Positions 2,650-42,470 of a DNA stretch of 42,470 nt are shown in pieces; positions within the stretch are counted from its first letter, which is position 1; each line of letters starts with the position of its first letter. The stretch comes from a virus (lineage: Duplodnaviria > Heunggongvirae > Uroviricota > Caudoviricetes): IMG/VR virus record IMGVR_UViG_2909288124_000001, one strand, 5' to 3'. The position numbers and the translations under genes are program-made. A model generated the notes under the pieces. That model was not told where the DNA came from. It made no database searches and saw nothing but the letters and a program-made list of their open reading frames with translations.

Positions 2650-2727
2650 TGATGCGCCGCGCGATAAATGCACTCTATCTTGTGCGATAAATGGCATCCA
2701 CGCGGCGTTTCATTATTTGAAAAAGAA
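2650..2727. other. Prophage terminal region (Gin-proximal end) with candidate transposase-binding repeats
   Basis: Repeated GATAAATG motifs at 2663 and 2684 plus CGTTTCATTATTTGAAAAAG, reminiscent of Mu attR A-binding sites (CGTTTCACGATAAATGCGAAAA recalled from memory). Confidence 0.5.
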
Positions 2728-3300
2728 TTACATTTCAGGTTGCGTTATGACAGTCCCAACAGGGTGATAGCGGTAGATCGTTGACAGTCCAATATCATAG
2801 ATAATTGCCAGCCGCTTTCTGTCATACCCTTTCTGGAGCAATCTTGCGATCTGCTCATGCTGCTCCTTCGTCAGTTTCGGGCGACGTCCTCCAACTCTTC
2901 CTTGTGCTCGCGCAGCAGCCAGTCCAGCCAGCGTGCGCTCAACTATCAGTTCACGCTCCATTTCTGCCAGTGCACCCATCATATGAAAAAAGAACCTTCC
3001 CATCGGAGTGCTGGTATCGATTGAATCCGTCAGACTGCGAAAATTGACACCTTTTGCGCGTAGCTCTTCTGTGAGAGCAATGAGGTGTTTCATTCTTCTA
3101 CCCAACCGATCCAGCTTCCAGACCACCAATGTATCCCCTCTTTTAAGGCACTTTAAAGCGCGTTTCAGGCCTGGTCGTTCCGACTTGGTTCCGCTCATTT
3201 TGTCCTCAAAAATCTGTTCACATCCTGCGCACATTAATGCATTGCGTTGCAAATCTGTGTTTTGGTCATTTGTTGACACACGTATGTAGCCAATCAGCAT
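2728..3300 (-). CDS. gin: Serine DNA invertase (Gin/Cin/Pin/Hin family)
   Basis: From internal ATG at 3300 (RBS AAGGGAG upstream): MLIGYIRVSTNDQNTDLQRNAL...GDTLVVWKLDRLGR...ALAEMERELIVERT... closely matches Mu Gin as recalled; 190 aa; sits next to an invertible tail-fiber segment. Confidence 0.9.
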   Translation of the reverse strand: MLIGYIRVSTNDQNTDLQRNALMCAGCEQIFEDKMSGTKSERPGLKRALKCLKRGDTLVVWKLDRLGRRMKHLIALTEELRAKGVNFRSLTDSIDTSTPMGRFFFHMMGALAEMERELIVERTLAGLAAARAQGRVGGRRPKLTKEQHEQIARLLQKGYDRKRLAIIYDIGLSTIYRYHPVGTVITQPEM

Positions 3301-3354
3301 TAAAAATACTCCCTTTTGAGTGGTTAAAGTACTGAGATAATGTGGGGAGGATTT

Positions 3355-3380
3355 GAGAGATAAACGTTGGTTTGGGGGAA
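3355..3380. other. gix/hix-like recombination site A (GAGAGATAAACG-TT-GGTTTGGGGGAA)
   Basis: Hin/Gin-type architecture (AAAC-NN-GGTTT core); homology with the fiber-gene site starts exactly at the central TT; crossover would keep the fiber reading frame. Confidence 0.5.
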
Positions 3381-3800
3381 GGCTCGGCGCTGCCCGTTGG
3401 TGTACCTGTTCCGTGGCCCACTGCCACACCGCCAGCAGGCTGGTTAAAGTGCGACGGGCGCGCCTTTACAAAAGAACAATATCCTGTTCTGGCCAGAGTC
3501 TACCCGACCCTCCGTCTTCCCGATTTACGCGGTGAGTTTATCCGTGGATGGGACGACGGGCGAAAAGTGGATACAGGGCGCGATCTGCTTTCACGGCAGG
3601 ATGGTACAAGTTTTTCTCATTACGCAGGTAATTTTGACATTGGGTCTGGTCATTCAATCAATAACTATGACCAAATCGTTGACAACCAACCTGGATTCTC
3701 CCGTTTTTCATTTGCAGGTCCTTCGCTAGGCGATGGGGTTAATTATGTGACCATTCGTCCCCGTAACATTGCGTTTAATTACATCGTAAGGGCGGCATAG
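3369..3800 (+). CDS. Silent alternative tail-fiber C-terminal cassette A (collar-like domain plus variable tip; no start codon of its own)
   Basis: Encodes LGEGSALPVGVPVPWPTATPPAGWLKCDGRAFTKEQYPVLARVYPTLRLPDLRGEFIRGWDDGRKVDTGR... ending RPRNIAFNYIVRAA; in frame from crossover site A. Confidence 0.7.
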   Translation, partial: GLGEGSALPVGVPVPWPTATPPAGWLKCDGRAFTKEQYPVLARVYPTLRLPDLRGEFIRGWDDGRKVDTGRDLLSRQDGTSFSHYAGNFDIGSGHSINNYDQIVDNQPGFSRFSFAGPSLGDGVNYVTIRPRNIAFNYIVRAA

Positions 3801-3819
3801 AAACGTTGGTTTAGGAGAA
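3794..3819. other. gix/hix-like recombination site B (CATAGAAACG-TT-GGTTTAGGAGAA)
   Basis: Second direct copy of the site, 17/19 identical to site A core; followed by a second about 215-bp copy of the collar-domain repeat. Confidence 0.45.
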
Positions 3820-4323
3820 GGCTCGGCGCTACCCGTTGGTGTACCTGTTCCGTGGCCCACCGCCACACCGCCAGCAGGCTGGTTAAAGTGCGACGGGCGC
3901 GCCTTTACAAAAGAACAATATCCTGTTCTGGCCAGAGTCTACCCGACCCTCCGTCTTCCCGATTTACGCGGTGAGTTTATCCGTGGATGGGACGACGGGC
4001 GCAAAGTTGATACAGGACGTAAGTTGCTGTCCGCACAAGGGGCAACGCTGTTAAGAACAGCAATGCTGGATTATTATAACCAGGACACTACGGGAACCTC
4101 GGGGATAGTCGGCATGGGATTCAACAATGAAGATTCCATTACAGACCTTCGTGAGGGCAGCTTTAAAATGCCGGACGGGACAACATTCAGTAATCCTGCC
4201 ATGGCAATGTCAGACAATGGTATGCAGGCTACTATTCTGACCTCTATCAGAAGCGGGTATGCGAAGGGTATCACTGTCAGACCCCGTAGCATTGCACTTA
4301 ATTACATTGTGAGGGCAGTTTAA
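3808..4323 (+). CDS. Silent alternative tail-fiber C-terminal cassette B (collar-like domain plus distinct variable tip)
   Basis: Open frame from site B: same collar-domain sequence then ...KLLSAQGATLLRTAMLDYYNQDTTG...GITVRPRSIALNYIVRAV; immediately followed by a tail fiber assembly gene. Confidence 0.7.
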   Translation, partial: GLGEGSALPVGVPVPWPTATPPAGWLKCDGRAFTKEQYPVLARVYPTLRLPDLRGEFIRGWDDGRKVDTGRKLLSAQGATLLRTAMLDYYNQDTTGTSGIVGMGFNNEDSITDLREGSFKMPDGTTFSNPAMAMSDNGMQATILTSIRSGYAKGITVRPRSIALNYIVRAV

Positions 4324-4937
4324 TGAGTAACACTGCAGTTCTGGATGAAAACGGTATCGCCACTGTAGCGGGCGATATCACTGTATATCACTATGACGAG
4401 GAAACCCGGGAATACACCTCATCCTCTGTGGAGTATCTCGCCCTTGGGGTGGGTACTCCGGCACATTCGTGCGCCGATGCACCGCCGGAAGCAATTTCGG
4501 GTTACGTGGTTTGCCGGACTGCCACGCTGAACGGGTGGGAGCATGTGCCTGATCACCGCGGCGAGACGGTATACAGCACGGAGAACGGTAACCCCGTTCT
4601 GATTACCCAACCGGGTGATTACCCGGCGGACACCACCACAAAACAGCCAGCCACGCCATGGGATACCTGGAACGGTGAGGCGTGGGTAACCGATACTGAA
4701 CGGCAGCGAGCCGCAGAACTGGAGGTTGCCAGACAGCAACGCCAGCAACGGGTGAAACAGGCGATGGCGTCCGTCGATCTTATCAACCTCAAACTGCGTG
4801 CTGGTCGCAGTCTGAAACCAGAAGAAACGGCAAAACTGAACGCCGTGCTGGATTATATCGACGAGCTGAACGCACTGGATATCAGCAAGGCACCTGAAAT
4901 CAGCTGGCCGGAAGCGCCACTGGCGCTTGCCGGCTGA
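4323..4937 (+). CDS. Tail fiber assembly protein (Tfa / Mu U / P2 G family)
   Basis: 204 aa; motifs WEHVPDHRGETVY, TWNGEAWVTDTE, APEISWPEAP parallel lambda Tfa as recalled; located inside the invertible segment, currently opposite in orientation to the expressed fiber gene. Confidence 0.85.
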   Translation: MSNTAVLDENGIATVAGDITVYHYDEETREYTSSSVEYLALGVGTPAHSCADAPPEAISGYVVCRTATLNGWEHVPDHRGETVYSTENGNPVLITQPGDYPADTTTKQPATPWDTWNGEAWVTDTERQRAAELEVARQQRQQRVKQAMASVDLINLKLRAGRSLKPEETAKLNAVLDYIDELNALDISKAPEISWPEAPLALAG

Positions 4938-4943
4938 ACGGTA

Positions 4944-5894
4944 TCACGCCGCCCTCACGATATAGTTAAATGCGATATTGCGGGGGCGAGCTGATACATA
5001 AGCCCACCAGTCATATCTTTGTGCACCTTTAGAGGATGCATCAAATATCCACTTTTTGCCATTTAAGACCCCCAGTTGATTAGAGGTTAAAGCGTCACCA
5101 AATCCGTATTGTGTAGAGCCGAGCGAACTGATATCTCCGGTATCATTATCATCAAAACCGGATACGATAGTCCCTTCCTGAAATGAAAGTAGCGCACGCC
5201 CGGTATCAACCTTGCGACCACCGTCCCATCCACGGATAAACTCACCGCGCAAATCGGGAAGACGGAGGGTCGGGTAGACTCTGGCCAGAACAGGATATTG
5301 TTCTTTGGTGAACGTAGCTCCGTTGCACTGTAACCAGCCTGCTGGCGGTGTGGCGGTGGGCCATGGAACCGGTACACCAACAGGCAATGCAGAGCCTTCC
5401 CCCAAACCAAGGTAATTGAGGACATCTTTTATACTGCCCTTAGCGATAATAGCGCGACCAATAGCTGTAAGGGTTGCCAGCGCTGCGCGGTCTGCTCCGG
5501 TAAAATAAGGCAACCGATCTGCTGCAGTGGCAAGTCCTGCCAGAGCAGTGAGCGTGGCATCTGCCGGTTGTTTTCCGTTTGCCAGGTCGTATGCAGCCTT
5601 GACCGCTTTTGGTGTGGCGGCCAGCGTTTCAGAGGTGCTGTTGGTGGCACTGCTCAGTTGGGTGAACCCCTTAGCTGTCAGTGTCGCGTCCGGGTGGTTA
5701 CGGGAACGTACGTGTTCAGCCAGTGACTGTGCGGCTTCCTCCGTTTTCTTCTTCAGCCATTTCGTCCTGTTTGCCAGTTGCCGGGGGGCTCGATTTGATA
5801 TCCCGTCTGCGCCACCCAGAACCGGATCTGATGTCTCCAGTTGATAGATATTTTCTTCCCACTTTTCTGTTTCATTCAGGTTTCCCATAATCAA
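4944..5894 (-). CDS. Tail fiber protein (constant N-terminal part plus currently joined variable C-terminal cassette F)
   Basis: 316 aa; last gene of the minus-strand tail operon; contains an inverted copy of the collar-domain repeat and ends in RPRNIAFNYIVRAA. Confidence 0.85.
   Translation of the reverse strand: MIMGNLNETEKWEENIYQLETSDPVLGGADGISNRAPRQLANRTKWLKKKTEEAAQSLAEHVRSRNHPDATLTAKGFTQLSSATNSTSETLAATPKAVKAAYDLANGKQPADATLTALAGLATAADRLPYFTGADRAALATLTAIGRAIIAKGSIKDVLNYLGLGEGSALPVGVPVPWPTATPPAGWLQCNGATFTKEQYPVLARVYPTLRLPDLRGEFIRGWDGGRKVDTGRALLSFQEGTIVSGFDDNDTGDISSLGSTQYGFGDALTSNQLGVLNGKKWIFDASSKGAQRYDWWAYVSARPRNIAFNYIVRAA
5397..5422. other. gix/hix-like recombination site F inside the tail fiber gene (inverted relative to sites A and B)
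   Basis: Fiber-strand sequence CTCAATTACC-TT-GGTTTGGGGGAAGG; right half-site and downstream identical to site A, left half-site unrelated; TT falls on codon positions 2-3 of Leu in ...NYLGLGEG... Confidence 0.5.
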
Positions 5895-6469
5895 CTGCTC
5901 CCGTGGTTATAACTGCCATCATGGATGGCGGTATTGTTATAGCGAATGGCCACAGACTGATACTCCAGGCTGGCCAGATGGCAGCGGGCCGGTGCAAATG
6001 CAGCCAGCGTCTGACGCAGCATCGCGGCCTGATCGTTAGTAATGGGCTGTTTCAGAATAACGCGATAAACTGCCCAGGCGGCTGCATCTCCATGAACAAA
6101 CAGTCCGTTATAGCTGCGATTGCCGTCGTAACTGAGACGACCTGTGCCTTCAATCAGATCCACTTCACCAAAGCCAAAACGGCGGATAACTTCCCGGATT
6201 GACCACGGCGTCCCTTTATACCGGTGCAGTTCGATGGCTGCTTTTATAAGCATGCGGCGAACATCGTCCGATTCCGCCAGCTCCCAGCCATCGCCAGACA
6301 GTGAGAACTGCTCGCCCAGCCATGGCAGCGCGGAACTGTCGACGATATCGACGAGAAAGACCATCAGTACGCTCAGGTCGATGTTATCCAGCCGTCCTGC
6401 CAGTCTTCCCAGCGTCCTGAGACTGATATCACCCTCAAGCGGTGGCGGGAGTTGTAATGGCTCAGTCAT
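5891..6469 (-). CDS. Baseplate/tail protein, P2 gpI-like
   Basis: 192 aa, position between gpJ-like and tail fiber genes, consistent with P2 gpI / Mu gp48 (assignment by synteny and size). Confidence 0.65.
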   Translation of the reverse strand: MTEPLQLPPPLEGDISLRTLGRLAGRLDNIDLSVLMVFLVDIVDSSALPWLGEQFSLSGDGWELAESDDVRRMLIKAAIELHRYKGTPWSIREVIRRFGFGEVDLIEGTGRLSYDGNRSYNGLFVHGDAAAWAVYRVILKQPITNDQAAMLRQTLAAFAPARCHLASLEYQSVAIRYNNTAIHDGSYNHGSS

Positions 6470-10807: not shown

Positions 10808-13758
10808 CAGCGGTACTCCTTACGTTGTTTCTGAGCCAGCAGACGCTCCAGCATTTTTTCCAGCTCATGCAGGCTCATATTCAGGGCGCCAGTCAGTCCG
10901 GCAGGCGCTGTGGTTTCCCTGCCATTGAGGAAAAACTGAGGATTAAAGCTGACCTGGATACCACCAGACGTTCCACCGCCGGTTGCAGCTGCACCACGGT
11001 CTGAATATCCGGCAGCCATGATTTCAGGCGAGGGGATACGGGGAACATCCGGTGTCATCTCATTTGCCAGACGTTGCCCTGGTAAAATCGATGCCCGGGT
11101 GGAGAGCGGGATAGCGGGCATGGAAGACAAACTATTGATTACGGCTCCGATCGCATTTTTAGCAGACGACATAAACCCGTTGATATCGGGCAACGGCATA
11201 CTGAAGCGAACACCTGAAGTGTTATCCCGTATTTCTGGCCCCTGAATGCTCACGGGCATTCTGGGGAGCAGTTCACTGGCCATTCGCTGCCCGGCCAGAG
11301 CTGCAAGCGGAGTGGTCCGCTGCAGGCCAATGGCGGCCCCCTGCGCGATATTGTCACCAAAGCCCATAAACACGCGGCTCGGCGAATGAATACCCAGCTT
11401 TTCACTGAACCAGCCACTGATGCTGTCACCCATTCCGGTTACACTGGATTTGAGCGACTCCCATTTGTTTTTGATACCGTTAATCAGACCGTCGACAAGA
11501 TGGCCACCGAAGTCGGTGAACTTTGCCGGCAGATCAACACCAAGATATTTCAGCGCAGCTGCAAAGGCTTTATAGAGCAGACCTGCCGGCGACCAGTTAA
11601 TCAGCAGCTTACCAGTTCCCGCGATACCGCCGTTAAAGGCTTCCTGAATGTCAGCCCAGCACTGTTTAAACCAGCTACTGATGCTGTCACCCATTCCGGT
11701 TACACTGGATTTGAGCGACCCCCATTTGTTTTTGATACCGTTAATCAGACCGTCGATAAGATGGCCACCGAAGTCGGTGAACTTTGCCGGCAGAGCAACG
11801 CCGAAATATTTCAGCGCAGCCGCAAAGGCTTTATAGAGCAGGCCTGCCGGCGACCAGTTAATCAGTAACTTACCAATTCCCACAATGCCGCCGTTAAAGG
11901 CTTCCTGAATGTCTGCCCAGCGCTGTTTAAACCAGCCACTGACTGCCCCCCAGTTGCGGTAGATAAGGTAAGCTGCTGCCGCGACAGCGGTGATAACGAG
12001 ACCGATGGGATTCATCATCAGCGCACGTCCAATCCAGAGAACAGCACGTCCGGCGAGCATAATTCCGCGAACCAGCCCCCCGGAGAGCACGCCACTCAGT
12101 GTTCTGGCTCCTCTGGCGACGGCGCTAAATCCGGTCACCAGCCAGCGGAGCTTACCGCCTTGCCCCAGTGCGAGCGACAGACGAAGCCAGTTGGCCCGAA
12201 GTAAAACAGCATTTTTCCAGACACTTACAAAGGGGGAAATAAGGAGATTCAGCCCCAGTTTGAGACCAACAGTCGCTATCTTAATCGCAAGGAGCGCACT
12301 GATGAGCTTAAAAGCCCCACTGACAAATTGCGGGTGAGTCGCTACCCAGTGTTTTGCCCCCTGAATGAGTGGAAGCAGTTCCTGAGTCAGAGAAATAAAA
12401 GATGGAGCTAATTGATCGCCCAGCGTAATTGCCAGATCGCGACTGCTGACCATAAGTGTTTTAGTGGCTTCAAGGGGAGATTTCAGCCGCTGATCATAAG
12501 CACTGGCAAGCAAATCGTTATCCGCAGCCCTGAGAGCACCGGCACGGATCTCTCGATATCTGTCCATGTTGGCCAGCATCGGGCGGATAAATGCCATGAC
12601 CTGCATATCCGCGAACATATCGCCCAGACCAAAGTTTTTCGCCAGAGCCTGAAGTGCCTCATCTCTTGCCGTATCATTCTTTATTTTCATGGCTGATTTG
12701 AAGCCGGCCAGCGCTTCGGGGCTTTTGGCATTGAGGTAACGTTCTATAACACTCAACATCCCTTCAATCGGAGAGATCCCCGCAGCTTTATAACTCGCAA
12801 TAGATCCCTGCAAATCAATACCCAGATCAGCAAACTGTTTCTGAGTATCGCGGGCAAAAATTTTGGTAAGAAAGTTTTTAAAATTATTGGCTGCTTCGTC
12901 GGTGGAACCTGCACCGATTTTTGCTATCTGGAGACTGGCCCCGATTTCAGCAACAGCCTCTTTTCCACTGGCAATACCCGCCATCATTGGGGCCAGGGAC
13001 TGCATCCACTTGACCTGATCCGGGATTTCAAATGACCCCTGGTCACCGGCATAAGCCATAATATTCTGAACGGCACCAAAATCTCTGGCCGCACCTTTCA
13101 GGGAGTTTTGCCAGACTGCGGCCACTTTTGCCCAGTCCTGAGCAGACGTGCGTGTTGCCGTTGCCGCGCGGGCAATATCCGGCATCAGAAAACCGATATC
13201 TGACACATTATCAATATTGTCGCTGATGAGTGAACCCACCGCCTCCTGCAGCTCATCCTGATACTGATTGTATTTAAGCGCCCAGCCTTTTATCTGTCCG
13301 GCAAGTCCATCCCGCGTTTTATTGTCATATTTTGCGGTGATCGACATATCAATCATTTTGTCCTGAAAAGACATGGACTGCTGAACGGCAGGGGAAACCG
13401 TATGATAAACAGTCTGTGCCATGCCATACGCTTCAATCCCCTGACCATACAGCGCCATGCGGTTAGCTTTCAGCGCATCACTGGTAGCGGATGCCGCTGA
13501 CAGACGGCGCTGCTGGCGCTCAATTTGCTCCATGGTGCGGCTTACCCGCAGCAGCTCGCTGTTGAGATACTGCATCCGGGAAGAACCCAGTTGACCATAA
13601 CGTTCTGTTGCACGGGTTAAAGCGTTCTGACGTTCCTGCAGGCGGCGTGAGGTATCGCTCAGGGAATCAAGCGCACGGCGGGTACCGCTCATTGCAGAAC
13701 GGAATGTGCTGCCAATCATCCCGCCGATAACAACGCCGACTGAAAACTGTCCAGACAT
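10807..13758 (-). CDS. Tail tape measure protein
   Basis: 983 aa; ATG at 13758 with GGAGGT RBS; follows frameshifted chaperone gene; hydrophobic and coiled-coil segments; carries an internal in-frame 261-bp tandem duplication. Confidence 0.85.
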   Translation of the reverse strand: MSGQFSVGVVIGGMIGSTFRSAMSGTRRALDSLSDTSRRLQERQNALTRATERYGQLGSSRMQYLNSELLRVSRTMEQIERQQRRLSAASATSDALKANRMALYGQGIEAYGMAQTVYHTVSPAVQQSMSFQDKMIDMSITAKYDNKTRDGLAGQIKGWALKYNQYQDELQEAVGSLISDNIDNVSDIGFLMPDIARAATATRTSAQDWAKVAAVWQNSLKGAARDFGAVQNIMAYAGDQGSFEIPDQVKWMQSLAPMMAGIASGKEAVAEIGASLQIAKIGAGSTDEAANNFKNFLTKIFARDTQKQFADLGIDLQGSIASYKAAGISPIEGMLSVIERYLNAKSPEALAGFKSAMKIKNDTARDEALQALAKNFGLGDMFADMQVMAFIRPMLANMDRYREIRAGALRAADNDLLASAYDQRLKSPLEATKTLMVSSRDLAITLGDQLAPSFISLTQELLPLIQGAKHWVATHPQFVSGAFKLISALLAIKIATVGLKLGLNLLISPFVSVWKNAVLLRANWLRLSLALGQGGKLRWLVTGFSAVARGARTLSGVLSGGLVRGIMLAGRAVLWIGRALMMNPIGLVITAVAAAAYLIYRNWGAVSGWFKQRWADIQEAFNGGIVGIGKLLINWSPAGLLYKAFAAALKYFGVALPAKFTDFGGHLIDGLINGIKNKWGSLKSSVTGMGDSISSWFKQCWADIQEAFNGGIAGTGKLLINWSPAGLLYKAFAAALKYLGVDLPAKFTDFGGHLVDGLINGIKNKWESLKSSVTGMGDSISGWFSEKLGIHSPSRVFMGFGDNIAQGAAIGLQRTTPLAALAGQRMASELLPRMPVSIQGPEIRDNTSGVRFSMPLPDINGFMSSAKNAIGAVINSLSSMPAIPLSTRASILPGQRLANEMTPDVPRIPSPEIMAAGYSDRGAAATGGGTSGGIQVSFNPQFFLNGRETTAPAGLTGALNMSLHELEKMLERLLAQKQRKEYR
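11410..11932. repeat. In-frame tandem duplication (2 x 261 bp) within the tape measure gene
   Basis: 11410..11670 and 11671..11931 near-identical; encodes duplicated 87-aa block WFKQ(R/C)WADIQEAFNGGI...GMGDSIS. Confidence 0.8.
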
Positions 13759-39449: not shown

Positions 39450-39609
<160 letters not shown>

Positions 39610-39615
39610 CCTTCA
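39610..39615. repeat. Target-site duplication CCTTCA, right copy
   Basis: Identical to 2644..2649. Confidence 0.6.
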
Positions 39616-40256
39616 CTGGCCGCCCGAAAGAGACCGACATCGATATGTCCCGCCTTGATGGTTTTCCACAGCAGAGTCATGAAACGTGCGTCACTGATCC
39701 TGCGGCGTACAGCCTTCATCAGCAGTCGATGATGTACGGTGTCGAAGTAACTGGACAGGTCGCCTTCAATCACCCAGCGTCCCCGGGTTTCACCACAGTC
39801 TGTGAGCTGTAATTTCACCGTGCGGATCGCGTGGTGGACACTGCGCTCAGGCCGGAAGCCATATGAGAGCGTATGAAAATCACTCTCCCATATCGGCTCC
39901 ATCGCCATCAGCATGGCCCGCTGAACAATACGATCCCGCAACGCGGGGATACCCAGTGGTCGCAGTTTGCCGTTGCTTTTAGGGATGTAAACCCGTCTGG
40001 CGGGCAAGGGCTGGTAGTGGCCTGAGAGTAATTCATCCCTGAGGATTTGCAGCTCAACAGCCAGTCTGGCCTGTAGCATTGTTTTGTTCACGCCATCAAC
40101 GCCGGGGGTATGGGCCCCCTTTGATGAAAGCGTGATCCGCGCCGCTTCAGCCAGCCATTCTGGTTGTGTTATCAGACGCAGCAGCCGTTGAATCCGTAGG
40201 GACGGATCGGTGGCTGCCCATGTGGCAAGCTTGCGTTGCATTTCGCTGATTATCAA
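39616..40256 (-). pseudogene. Group II intron reverse transcriptase, N-terminal fragment (RT domains 0-3)
   Basis: ...IPKSNGKLRPLGIPALRDRIVQRAM...LSYGFRPERSVHHAI...WVIEGDLSSYFDTVHHRLLM...; last two codons (Asp-stop) come from the prophage end. Confidence 0.8.
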
Positions 40257-40912
40257 AGGTCTTCACCTCGTTAGGTCAGTTAATTCACGTCGCAAACACA
40301 TTCAAACTGCTTCCCTTCGCCATGTAATGGGCTTTCCCCATCGCGGACTACTACGGAAGCTCCGCCAGCCAGCGCGTCATCGGAGCCATGCCCCCTTAAC
40401 ATCCGTCGCTGACCTTCCCCGGTTTACCTGCCTGGACTCAGGCATACTGAGGAGGCTGCCCGTCGCACTCTTTATCCTTGCTTGCCGCAAGTTGGCAGAA
40501 GTCAGCAACGCAAGCGTGATAGACGCTGCTGCCCCGGTGTTTCGCATACATGTCAAAACACCTTCGACCGGCAGTGCTTACGTATCACTGCCAGTTCCTC
40601 CTGCACGGCCTGTCAGATCACGTAGGCCGTGGTGACGTTTTCAACCCACAGAGGCGGATTAACGGGTTCATGTTCTTCAGCCTTTCAGTACTTAACCTTG
40701 AGGATCATCTCGGCTTAGTGATCTCGCCTCAATCCCCGTTGTCAGCGGGTTACATCACCCTGCGGGCATGCCGCAGGTCACTGCCGCTCAGGTTCTCCAC
40801 CGTCACACCCGGTGGGATTGTTGGGTTTCTCATCGTGAGTTACCGGTTCAATATTCCAGACAGACTCGCGGTTCATTTAAGCATCCATGCCCGCCCTGAA
40901 CTCCGGGCACAC

Positions 40913-41341
40913 TATAGGTCACATCACCGCACCACACCTGATTTGGTTCCGTTACGGCGAACTGTCGCTCAAGATGATTCGGGATAGCAACGTGCTCATG
41001 ACCGCCACGCTTATACCGGTGAGTCGGCTGCTGGCAACTGACCAGCCCCAGCTCTTTCATGAGTCTGCCAGCAAGCCAGCGCCCCATCTGGTAGCCTCTC
41101 TGGGTTGCCATTGTGGCGATGCTTCTTGCTCCGGCAGAGCCGTGGCTGATGCCATGCAGTTCAAGTACCTGGCTGCGTAATACAGCCCGTCTGCCGTCTG
41201 GCTTTTCAGGACGGTTTTTCCAGTATTTGTAGCTGCTGCGATGGACCCCGAACACATGGCAGAGAGTGGCCACAGGATAACGCGCCCTGAGTTTCCCGAT
41301 TATCGAGAACTGTTCAGGGAGTCTGACATCAAGAGCGCGGT
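40913..41341 (-). pseudogene. IS911-like (IS3 family) fragment: 3' end of orfA and N-terminal half of orfB, truncated by IS30
   Basis: ...[35 protein letters not shown]...QVWCGDVTY then intron; upstream boundary is the IS30-like terminal repeat at 41342. Confidence 0.7.
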
Positions 41342-42139
41342 TGTAGATTCAATCTGTCAATGCAACACCCCTTTCAATTATCTCTTTCGGTGTTTTGAAC
41401 TTCAGTGTCTTTCTCGGTCTGTTGTTTAGCTGAGCAGCAACCAGATCTAGTTCATGTTGAGTATATTGGGCAAGACATGTCTTTTTAGGAAAGTACTGCC
41501 GAATTAGCCCATTTGTGTTCTCATTTGTTCCCCGCTGCCAAGGACTCTGAGGATCGCAGAAGTAAACTTTAACGCCGGTGCTGACAGTAAATTCTAGATG
41601 TCTGGCCAGTTCCATTCCTCTGTCCCATGTCAGTGATTTTCTGAGTTCTGACGGTAAACTCAGGAATTTGTCGGTAAGAGCCTGATTTACTGAGACAGAA
41701 TCTTTGCCCCTGAGTCTAAGGATGATCGTATAACGTGATTTTCGGTCTACAAGTGTGGCTATATGAGAGTTTTTTGTACCTGAGACTAAATCGCCCTCCC
41801 AATGCCCCAGAGAGCGTCTGTTATCGATATTTCGGGAACGTTCGTGAATTGGTGTTCCGTTCACTATGTTAATCGTACCTCTTTCGCCTTTGCGGGTATG
41901 ACGCCTGCCATGGCGAAGGCTATGCGACCGTCGCAGATGCTGTATATTCAGGTGGTGTAGCGCTTCACGGCTACGAAAGTACAGCGTTTTATAAATTGTC
42001 TCAGGTGATATTCGCAGCGTTTTTTGACGTGGTTTTGTTCGCCTTAACCATCCTGATATTTGCTCTGGAGACCATTTCATCTCCAGCTTTTCCAGAACAA
42101 GCTTTCGCAATGGTAAATTTTGATCCAGTAAGCACGGTT
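41342..42139 (-). mobile_element. IS30-like element, truncated by IS1 insertion
   Basis: Terminal sequence TGTAGATTCAATCTGTCAATGCAACA at 41342; transposase ORF lacks N-terminal part; IS1 left end begins at 42140. Confidence 0.7.
41349..42139 (-). pseudogene. IS30-family transposase, N-terminally truncated
   Basis: ...HWEGDLVSGTKNSHIATLVDRKSRYT...FCDPQSPWQRGTNENTNGLIRQYFPK... matches IS30 transposase as recalled. Confidence 0.8.
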
Positions 42140-42470
42140 GGTGATGCTGCCAACTTACTGATTTAGTGTATGATGGTGTTTTTGAGGTGCTCCAGTGGCT
42201 TCTGTTTCTATCAGCTGTCCCTCCTGTTCAGCTACTGACGGGGTGGTGCGTAACGGCAAAAGCACTGCCGGACATCAGCGCTATCTCTGCTCTCACTGCC
42301 GTAAAACATGGCAACTGCAGTTCACTTACACCGCTTCTCAACCCGGTACGCACCAGAAAATCATTGATATGGCCATGAATGGCGTTGGATGCCGGGCAAC
42401 CGCCCGCATTATGGGCGTTGGCCTCAACACGATTTTCCGCCATTTAAAAAACTCAGGCCGCAGTCGGTAA
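42140..42470 (+). mobile_element. IS1, left part (continues beyond window)
   Basis: IS1 left end GGTGATGCTGCCAACTTACTGATTTAGTGTATGATGGTG at 42140 followed by insA. Confidence 0.85.
42195..42470 (+). CDS. insA: IS1 InsA
   Basis: 91 aa [43 protein letters not shown]... ending at the last base of the window. Confidence 0.9.

Follow-up and report, generated by a model that had tools for sequence, protein, structure and literature searches.

Introduction

The G segment of phage Mu, the C segment of P1/P7 and the P segment of e14 are two-state switches, each with two sites and with one tfa-type gene for every variable part. In Gin/Hin-type systems the enhancer lies in the 5'-part of the invertase gene and comprises two Fis sites with a spacing of about 48 bp. 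The enzyme of shufflons is a tyrosine recombinase, which acts on 19-bp sfx repeats, and the Min system of p15B, the work of Sandmeier, Iida and Arber, forms hundreds of isomers from its six sites.

Two loci of Escherichia coli are closer to the one described here. PacBio reads from one culture of strain EC958 contained both orientations of a 2067-bp segment of the prophage Phi2, and the segment was described as a two-site, two-allele switch (Forde 2014, PMC4134206). The homologous three-repeat locus of strain E2348/69 was shown by PCR and sequencing to exist in four variants with three different C-termini, and all four coexist within single-colony cultures (Goldberg 2014, PMC4272514). The locus and its layout are thus already known from other E. 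coli strains.

The stretch of DNA analysed here (42.5 kb, called the window) comes from E. coli FAM21845. It very probably carries a three-site invertible tail-fibre switch with a Gin-type invertase, by which one fibre gene acquires any of three tips. The original prediction, made from the sequence alone, had read the region as a multi-cassette tail-fibre switch, and this reading is upheld by three sites, three cassettes, an invertase of the Gin family and four natural isomers.

The prophage carrying the module

The prophage in the window is the same as that known as Phi2 in ST131, a BcepMu/phiE255-like (Mu-like) transposable prophage with the switch at its tail-fibre end. EC958 contains the same prophage type and module, with DNA 98–100% identical and an identical invertase protein. 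The invertase of FAM21845 has the same accession (WP_000904922.1) as in the ST131 copies, which differ from the window in having two extra fibre repeats (+336 bp) and in their location next to aroA. Given that its parts are identical to those in other strains, the switch is probably active in FAM21845.

It seems unlikely that the switch runs here with no role in phage host range, either because the prophage is defective or because the host has co-opted the module for phage defence or surface effects. IS and intron debris does surround the prophage in this genome, and invertases of cryptic prophage elements (PinQ/PinR) alter phage adsorption, as outlined in two reports (PMC12529663; bioRxiv 10.1101/2025.03.28.646004). 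However, the prophage appears complete. It is 37 kb long, its transposase A/B, Mor, lysis, head, tail and baseplate genes are all annotated as intact, matching inverted ends and a direct repeat are present at its junctions, and the reading frame is open in all fibre isoforms. Closely related copies of it occupy different chromosomal positions from one lineage to another, suggesting recent transposition.

Arrangement of the fibre module

The baseplate genes I, J, W and V lie upstream of the constant part of the fibre gene and share its strand. The components of the module are:
5411..5888, minus strand: constant N-terminal fibre part, for baseplate attachment, with one Phage_fiber_2 repeat (Pfam, 3e-21)
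4944..5410, minus strand: cassette F, the resident tip, with a Collar domain (3e-15), part of the resident open reading frame 4944-5888
4323..4937, plus strand: tfa, tail fibre assembly (chaperone) gene (Pfam Caudo_TAP, 6e-27; PHROG 105 tail fiber assembly, 3e-87)
3806..4323, plus strand: silent cassette B, Pfam Collar (2e-15) and a unique tip, its stop overlapping the tfa start (TAATG)
3367..3800, plus strand: silent cassette A, Pfam Collar (7e-16) and a unique tip, without tfa

Each cassette had been predicted to bring its own Collar domain and a unique tip; indeed, Pfam Collar was found in all three, within repeats of 229–244 nt. Compared with each other, the tips share 61–71% amino acid identity overall, mostly from the common Collar part. 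The tip of cassette F resembles the collar regions of short tail fibres and of T4 gp37 in a PDB search. The tfa gene is the sole assembly gene of the module. It overlaps, and is co-oriented with, cassette B only; cassettes A and F are without tfa, and F is convergent with it across a gap of 6 bp. A PDB search gave no sequence relative of the Tfa protein.

Fusion at the central TT dinucleotide of the crossover sites, which occupies codon positions 2-3 in all three as predicted, joins the constant part (5888..5411, minus strand) in frame to cassette A (303 aa) or cassette B (331 aa); the resident F form in the window has 314 aa. In the real ST131 isomers the fibre open reading frame is intact in every case, with 426, 415 or 443 aa. 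The cassettes may be promoterless, as first proposed; no sigma-70-like promoter was found in 2650-6000, where 2.8 are expected by chance.

Crossover sites

Three 26-bp gix/hix-like sites, each with a central TT, were located where the original prediction had placed them:
3355..3380, plus strand: site s3 (A in the original prediction), proximal to the invertase gene, GAGAGATAAACG-TT-GGTTTGGGGGAA, with fixed left half GAGAGATAAACG and TT at 3367-3368
3794..3819, plus strand: site s2 (B in the original prediction), internal, GGCATAGAAACG-TT-GGTTTAGGAGAA, with left half GGCATAGAAACG and TT at 3806-3807
5397..5422, minus strand: site s1 (F in the original prediction), inside the expressed fibre gene, TCCTCAATTACC-TT-GGTTTGGGGGAA as the reverse complement, with fixed left half TCCTCAATTACC and AA on the plus strand at 5409-5410

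All are of the type AAAC(C/G)-TT-GGTTT at the core, with two half-sites around the 2-bp TT, and all align with gixR of Mu, although the core is TT and not the GA/TC of Mu gix. Site s1 falls in the fibre codons for ..NYLGLGE.., and the left half of s2 is the 3'-end of cassette A, whose TAG stop (3798-3800) lies within it. Site s3 is identical to 'Phi2_3prime', and the left half of s1 is also present in 'Phi2_5prime' (Forde 2014). A 19-nt pattern derived from the three sites revealed no fourth site or quasi-site in the 42.5-kb window; as the pattern was built from these sites, its 0.11 expected chance matches in 42.5 kb bear only on the absence of a fourth one.

Homology between the cassettes begins at the sites. 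Inverted repeats connect 3364-3607 with 5170-5413 (244 nt) and 3803-4031 with 5185-5413 (229 nt), both at 86% identity, and cassettes A and B share a direct repeat of 231 nt with 95% identity.

Invertase and candidate enhancer

Two further features lie beside s3:
2728..3300, minus strand: DNA invertase gene, 190 aa, WP_000904922.1, serine recombinase of the Gin/Cin/Pin/Hin family
3216..3279, minus strand: candidate Fis-dependent recombinational enhancer, two Fis-like 15-mers in the 5'-end of the invertase gene

The assignment of the protein as Gin-like proved correct. It has the Pfam domains Resolvase (8e-51) and HTH_7 (1e-12), matches the Mu Gin structures 4m6f/3uj3 (E 2e-93, residues 1-181 aligned) and retains the nucleophile Ser9, within MLIGYIRVSTNDQ. 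Its amino acid identity is 77% with Mu Gin, 72% with P7 Cin and 86% with the invertase of E2348/69. Site s3 is the nearest to the gene, its centre being 67 bp from the ATG, which is also the distance from the annotated G-segment boundary to the gin ATG in Mu.

An enhancer inside the 5'-end of the invertase gene is suggested by homology. The Fis-like 15-mers have their centres at +29 and +78 relative to the ATG, spaced by 49 bp, and fall within +19..+86, which the P7 record labels as the cin enhancer. They are candidate sites that match at consensus level only, such 15-mers occurring about twice per kb in the window at a cut-off stricter than both of them reach. Two boxes of this region, GTrTCAACAAATGAmC and GCAGGATGTGArC, are near-invariant in the window, Mu and P7, third codon positions included.

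Inversion is probably carried out by this particular invertase, considering the mixed orientations seen in cultures of EC958 and E2348/69. Action in trans by other Gin-family invertases of the same cell is possible, and such a case was discussed for Phi4 (Forde 2014, PMC4134206).

Natural isomers

Three sites allow four possible orders, and in-silico crossover reaches these four states only:
Isomer 1 (the window): constant part-F, tfa(-), B(-), A(-)
Isomer 2: constant part-B, tfa(+), F(-), A(-)
Isomer 3: constant part-A, B(+), tfa(+), F(-)
Isomer 4: constant part-A, F(+), tfa(-), B(-)

Module maps of nine loci contained all four predicted orders and no other order, and all four isomers are present among complete ST131 genomes. 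When the locus of strain 1438 was converted in silico to the other three isomers by crossover at TT, there were no mismatches in 3682 nt (reference loci EC958, p11B, 1437, E41-1 and p11A). Both junctions foreseen for the window, 3367/5410 and 3806/5410, were seen in natural ST131 isomers of the same prophage. The sole difference between strains 1437 and 1438, and likewise between p11A and p11B, is an inversion between s1 and s3 (6.1–6.8 kb around the locus compared). Isolates p11A and p11B are both from blood in Houston; the members of both pairs bear the same name and have near-equal genome sizes, and each pair is likely to be of the same source.

Among the loci examined, each fixed left half-site was joined to different cassettes. 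In different genomes the left half of s1 is followed by F, A or B and that of s2 by B or F, and s2 is thus in use. A two-state switch between the outer sites, with s2 a dead relic and its cassette unexpressed, is therefore hardly credible. It would agree with the account of EC958 Phi2, which gives just a 5' and a 3' site, both of them outer sites of the window, with one inversion of the same 2067-bp segment and no mention of an internal site or of a ring of four isomers (Forde 2014). However, outer inversion pairs only the window type with constant part-A-B, and constant part-B with constant part-A-F, and ST131 genomes that are nearly identical to one another contain all four. Inversion at the internal site is needed for two of the isomers observed, EC958 itself carries cassette B fused to the constant part, and of the inversions in the E2348/69 homologue the small one varies more (49 +/- 37%).

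RecA-dependent homologous recombination between the inverted Collar repeats, with the sites and the invertase incidental or inactive, is similarly improbable. The repeats are 230–244 nt long and 86–95% identical, a length that could allow occasional homologous exchange. Nevertheless, the 240-nt homology region of each cassette keeps its cassette-specific sequence whatever left half-site precedes it, and no chimeric cassette was found among the nine loci, so that every breakpoint falls between the left half and the first cassette-specific SNP. This SNP lies 6–18 nt after TT, which places the breakpoint within that distance of TT, at the extreme edge of the homology, in all nine loci. Homologous recombination as the driver was rejected on this position and on the lack of chimeras, and the exact agreement of the isomers with in-silico TT crossovers also speaks against it. 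Furthermore, the mixing of isomers in EC958 and E2348/69 cultures reaches tens of per cent, a level well beyond what RecA would give with 240-bp repeats of 86% identity, and cassette A persists in roughly 390 genomes despite the 95% identical direct repeat in A and B. An assembly artefact as the source of the isomers was rejected in view of the absence of mismatches, the isolate pairs differing by a single inversion, and the independent evidence of the PCR and PacBio papers.

There are roughly 700 matching complete genomes, about 390 of them with cassette A. The window arrangement, with the constant part joined to F, occurs in about 200 genomes, and that with A in 169 complete E. coli genomes. 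The query for the constant part joined to B, an arrangement found in EC958 and p11B, matched 327 genomes at a coverage of at least 80%, probably including constant part-A-B isomers and two-cassette relatives. Adjacency queries matched 185 genomes for A-B and 205 for A-F, two-cassette relatives also being counted. Long queries for constant part-A-B and constant part-A-F matched 217 and 174 genomes, above the 169 with constant part-A, because the search joins pieces across repeats, and the two A-expressing isomers are not cleanly separated by these counts.

Comparison with other inversion systems

The module resembles those of Mu (G/Gin), P1/P7 (C/Cin) and e14 (P/Pin) in its invertase family, its 26-bp sites that cross over within 2 bp, and the joining of one constant 5'-part of the fibre gene to alternative 3'-parts. 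Mu and P7 also share the sequence of the candidate enhancer region at the 5'-end of this gene for the invertase. Unlike these systems, it has three sites, four states and one tfa gene for three tips.

The original prediction likened the locus to the Min system of p15B. By description the two are alike in kind, with one Gin-family invertase, more than two sites and several fibre 3'-cassettes behind one constant 5'-part, but the comparison overstated the scale, as there are three sites and four isomers here. Among published systems the three-repeat locus of E2348/69 is the closer relative. That module (NC_011601.1:1891683-1893708, in a P2-like prophage of an EPEC strain) contains three sites of 26 bp, each with TT at its centre and the right half GGTTTGGGGGAA, the left half of its internal site being the 3'-end and stop codon of a tfa-less cassette. 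It also shares the single invertase, three Collar cassettes, a single tfa convergent with one cassette, and four isomers with three C-termini, and its cassette c1 and cassette A of the window have 85% amino acid identity. It differs in belonging to a P2-like phage with a gpH-type constant part and not to a BcepMu-like transposable phage, in the tips of the other two cassettes (50–63% identity) and in tfa (59% identity); the DNA identity with the window is about 70–78%. R64-type shufflons (Rci) are alike in that multiple inversion determines which C-terminal segment, out of several, a surface adhesin receives, but the recombinase adjacent to the module here is a serine invertase and the sites are 26-bp and gix-like.

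Proposed mechanism

The invertase would bind the 26-bp sites, and a Fis-bound enhancer in the 5'-end of its own gene would help to assemble the synapse. Strand exchange would then occur at the central TT between two sites in inverted orientation. With s1 inside the fibre gene and s2 and s3 ahead of the silent cassettes, inversion would place a new Collar tip in frame with the constant part, linking four DNA isomers in a ring that yields three alternative fibres, the A fibre in two contexts. Pairs of directly repeated sites would usually not be resolved, and the cassettes would thereby be retained. Transcription is presumed to come from the late operon only. The expected outcome would be mixed progeny with three receptor specificities, a probable form of host-range bet-hedging.

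The single tfa gene

The coupling of a single tfa to cassette B only is the one unexplained detail and the sole new question raised by the locus; the original prediction had overlooked it. As tfa flips together with cassettes B and F, fibre A has tfa downstream either in sense (constant part-A-B-tfa) or in antisense (constant part-A-F), and fibre F is never co-oriented with it. The Tfa of Mu has been proposed to stay on the fibre tip or to add its own receptor contact. It is conceivable, if rather doubtful, that the fourth isomer is non-redundant. If the Tfa of this module behaved in that way, the four DNA states could give four functionally different virions; alternatively, the orientation of tfa could act as an on/off layer. 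The Collar tips of A and F would then also fold with no chaperone of their own. A single tfa in the same arrangement is kept in the E2348/69 homologue, whose DNA identity is about 75%, and this argues against an accident.

Significance

Inversion at this locus accounts for assembly differences between near-identical strains and for the pseudogene fragments that PGAP calls where the fibre gene is intact. It also provides a likely explanation for a reported 'translocation' of fibre segments between ST131 isolates of the same patient. The three-cassette module, recognised by cassette A, is present in about 390 complete genomes of E. coli, many belonging to the pandemic ST131 clone, and shows cleanly how, in nature, a fibre switch with two states can gain a third tip through a single additional crossover site.

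Gene content of the fibre module

The window matches the E. coli FAM21845 chromosome (NZ_CP017220.1) at 100% identity. The segment 2728-5888 forms the tail-fibre end of a prophage of ~37 kb; its genes and crossover sites are listed below, together with the baseplate-side genes that lead up to it.

Genes and crossover sites of the tail-fibre module
Baseplate-side genes, (-): tape measure, D, V, W, J, I, then the fibre gene
4944-5888, (-): fibre gene, 314 aa, Pfam Phage_fiber_2 and Collar; 5411-5888 is the constant N-terminal part (const), the remainder the resident cassette F
4323-4937, (+): tfa, tail-fibre assembly (chaperone) gene, Pfam Caudo_TAP
3805-4323, (+): cassette B, Pfam Collar
3372-3800, (+): cassette A, ORF-like, Pfam Collar
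2728-3300, (-): recombinase gene, 190 aa, Pfam Resolvase and HTH_7
3355-3380: site A, GAGAGATAAACG-TT-GGTTTGGGGGAA
3794-3819: site B (internal), GGCATAGAAACG-TT-GGTTTAGGAGAA
5397-5422: site F, read on the fibre strand, TCCTCAATTACC-TT-GGTTTGGGGGAA

The Mu Gin crystal-structure sequences align end to end with the recombinase (E 2e-93), Ser9 being conserved, and its amino acid identity is 77% with Gin and 72% with P7 Cin.

Crossover sites and reading frames

The original prediction, of three gix-like sites at which crossover in a central TT would fuse the fibre N-terminus in frame to either silent cassette, was borne out in every detail. The sites lie at exactly the coordinates proposed, and the homology between cassettes begins at them and extends for 229-244 nt, with identities of 86% (F and A), 86% (F and B) and 95% (A and B). 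Joining const at TT to cassette A gives an open frame of 303 aa, and to cassette B one of 331 aa. A scan of the 42.5 kb with the three-site pattern, for which 0.11 matches are expected by chance, returned these three sites only; it shows the absence of a fourth site and nothing further.

Natural isomers

As one site is opposed to the two others, only four isomers can be reached, linked as a ring. The predicted fusion genes were built and used as queries against 5,426 complete E. coli genomes; the const-A fusion was present in 169, and the const-B query was covered to at least 80% in 327, a count that probably also takes in const-A-B isomers and two-cassette relatives; the arrangement of the window occurred in about 200. 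The majority of matching genomes were ST131, in which the prophage adjoins aroA. All four predicted isomers were found, each with an intact fibre ORF.

Isomers, written from const outward
const-F / tfa(-) / B(-) / A(-): window, LS4, 1438
const-B / tfa(+) / F(-) / A(-): EC958, p11B
const-A / B(+) / tfa(+) / F(-): 1437
const-A / F(+) / tfa(-) / B(-): E41-1, p11A

In-silico crossover exactly at the central TT, starting from the locus of 1438, yielded the loci of EC958, p11B, 1437, E41-1 and p11A, each with 0 mismatches over 3682 nt. Strains 1437 and 1438, and likewise the Houston blood isolates p11A and p11B, have near-equal genome sizes within each pair and differ solely by the outer inversion across the 6.1-6.8 kb compared around the locus.

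In many ST131 genomes (loci L002, L004 and L006-L009 of those compared), PGAP splits the intact fibre ORF (415, 426 or 443 aa) into 2-4 'incomplete' pseudogene fragments and gives the silent cassettes separate 'phage tail protein' genes; the cassette repeats are the source of this annotation artefact. Strain SCAID WND1-2021 (NZ_CP082831.1) has two copies of the locus, at ~3.28 Mb and ~4.80 Mb, one being a const-A-F and one a const-A-B isomer; either the locus is truly duplicated, or the assembly contains an alternative-contig artefact of the kind warned of by Forde 2014 (PMC4134206).

Position of the breakpoints

Three left half-sites stay in place, at const, at the 3' end of cassette A and on the invertase side, and each was seen joined to different cassettes. 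In the loci examined each cassette retained its own specific sequence in the right half-site and the 240-nt homology region with any left half-site, and no chimeric cassettes were seen. All breakpoints thus fall after the non-homologous left half and before the first cassette-specific SNP, located 6-18 nt past TT, as predicted for crossover in the 2-bp core. RecA exchange within the 240-nt repeats predicts otherwise and was rejected.

Candidate Fis enhancer

The invertase gene contains two Fis-like 15-mers, at +29 and +78 (spacing 49 bp); the cin enhancer is annotated at +19..+86 in the P7 record, and alignment of the window, Mu and P7 showed both boxes to be conserved, third codon positions included. 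The distance from site to ATG is 67 bp, likewise that from the annotated G-segment boundary to the gin ATG in Mu. Given this pair of boxes, their conservation, the P7 enhancer interval and the matching spacing, inversion is likely to be Fis-dependent.

Asymmetry of tfa

The chaperone gene accompanies cassette B only, the stop codon of B overlapping the tfa start (TAATG). Cassette A ends inside site B, and cassette F is convergent with tfa across a gap of 6 bp. As F and tfa are convergent on the same invertible segment, they are never co-oriented. Either the A and F tips would not need a dedicated chaperone, or tfa orientation would be an added functional layer.

The prophage and its surroundings

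The whole prophage (2650-39607) is a BcepMu/phiE255-like transposable phage with transposase A/B, Gam, Mor and divergent early and late arms. Its ends are TGATGCGCCGCGCGATAAATG and, reverse-complemented, TGATTAGACTTGAGATAAATG, and a CCTTCA direct repeat at both junctions is likely the target-site duplication. It is inserted in a group II intron reverse-transcriptase gene, fragments of which flank it at 1767-2669 and 39609-40241 (-), rather than beside aroA as in ST131. In 1437 and 1438 (L006, L007) the invertase end borders a truncated ompF, not aroA, which suggests deletion or rearrangement beside the prophage. The flanking DNA (1-2669, 39609-42470) is mobile-element debris, with an intact transposase of the IS256 family, fragments of IS3, one fragment of IS30, and IS1B.

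Const carries one Phage_fiber_2 repeat; ST131 copies are 336 bp longer, corresponding to two further units (compared with L002, 5720-6530), so that fibre shaft length varies among otherwise near-identical prophages. The tape measure gene contains an in-frame tandem duplication at 11408-11942 (2 x 261 bp, copies 93% identical).

Relatives and published systems

Escherichia phage 503046 (CP025887.1; L013, 3190-6334) is of the same phage type (const 98.5% identical, invertase gene 96%), and has two cassettes only, one being B with tfa and the other bearing a tip of a fourth kind; cassette A and the internal site are absent. Cassette number therefore varies within the lineage.

For Phi2, the same prophage type in ST131 EC958, PacBio sequencing of a culture showed both orientations of a 2067-bp segment, and two sites only were described (Forde 2014, PMC4134206). 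The tabulated 5' site, TCCTCAATTACCTTGGTTTAGGAGAA, is site F joined to cassette B, and the 3' site, GAGAGATAAACGTTGGTTTGGGGGAA, is site A. At the homologous locus of EPEC E2348/69 all four variants coexist, as established by PCR and sequencing (Goldberg 2014, PMC4272514; coordinates in Table S1 of that paper). The sequence of that locus has the same layout as the window module. Its three sites have a TT core, the left half of the internal one being formed by the stop-codon end of a tfa-less cassette, and there is a single tfa with the same asymmetry. Its invertase is 86% identical to that of the window, and one cassette is 85% identical to cassette A. A preprint (bioRxiv 10.1101/2022.05.07.487787, 2026 version) reports 'DNA translocation' of fibre segments in the phiE255-like ST131 prophage between isolates from the same patient, which two successive inversions in the module would resemble.

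The module is thus, as originally interpreted, a fibre switch of the Gin family with three sites. Both have been documented before: this locus as a switch with two sites, and its homologue as the complete system of three sites and four states.
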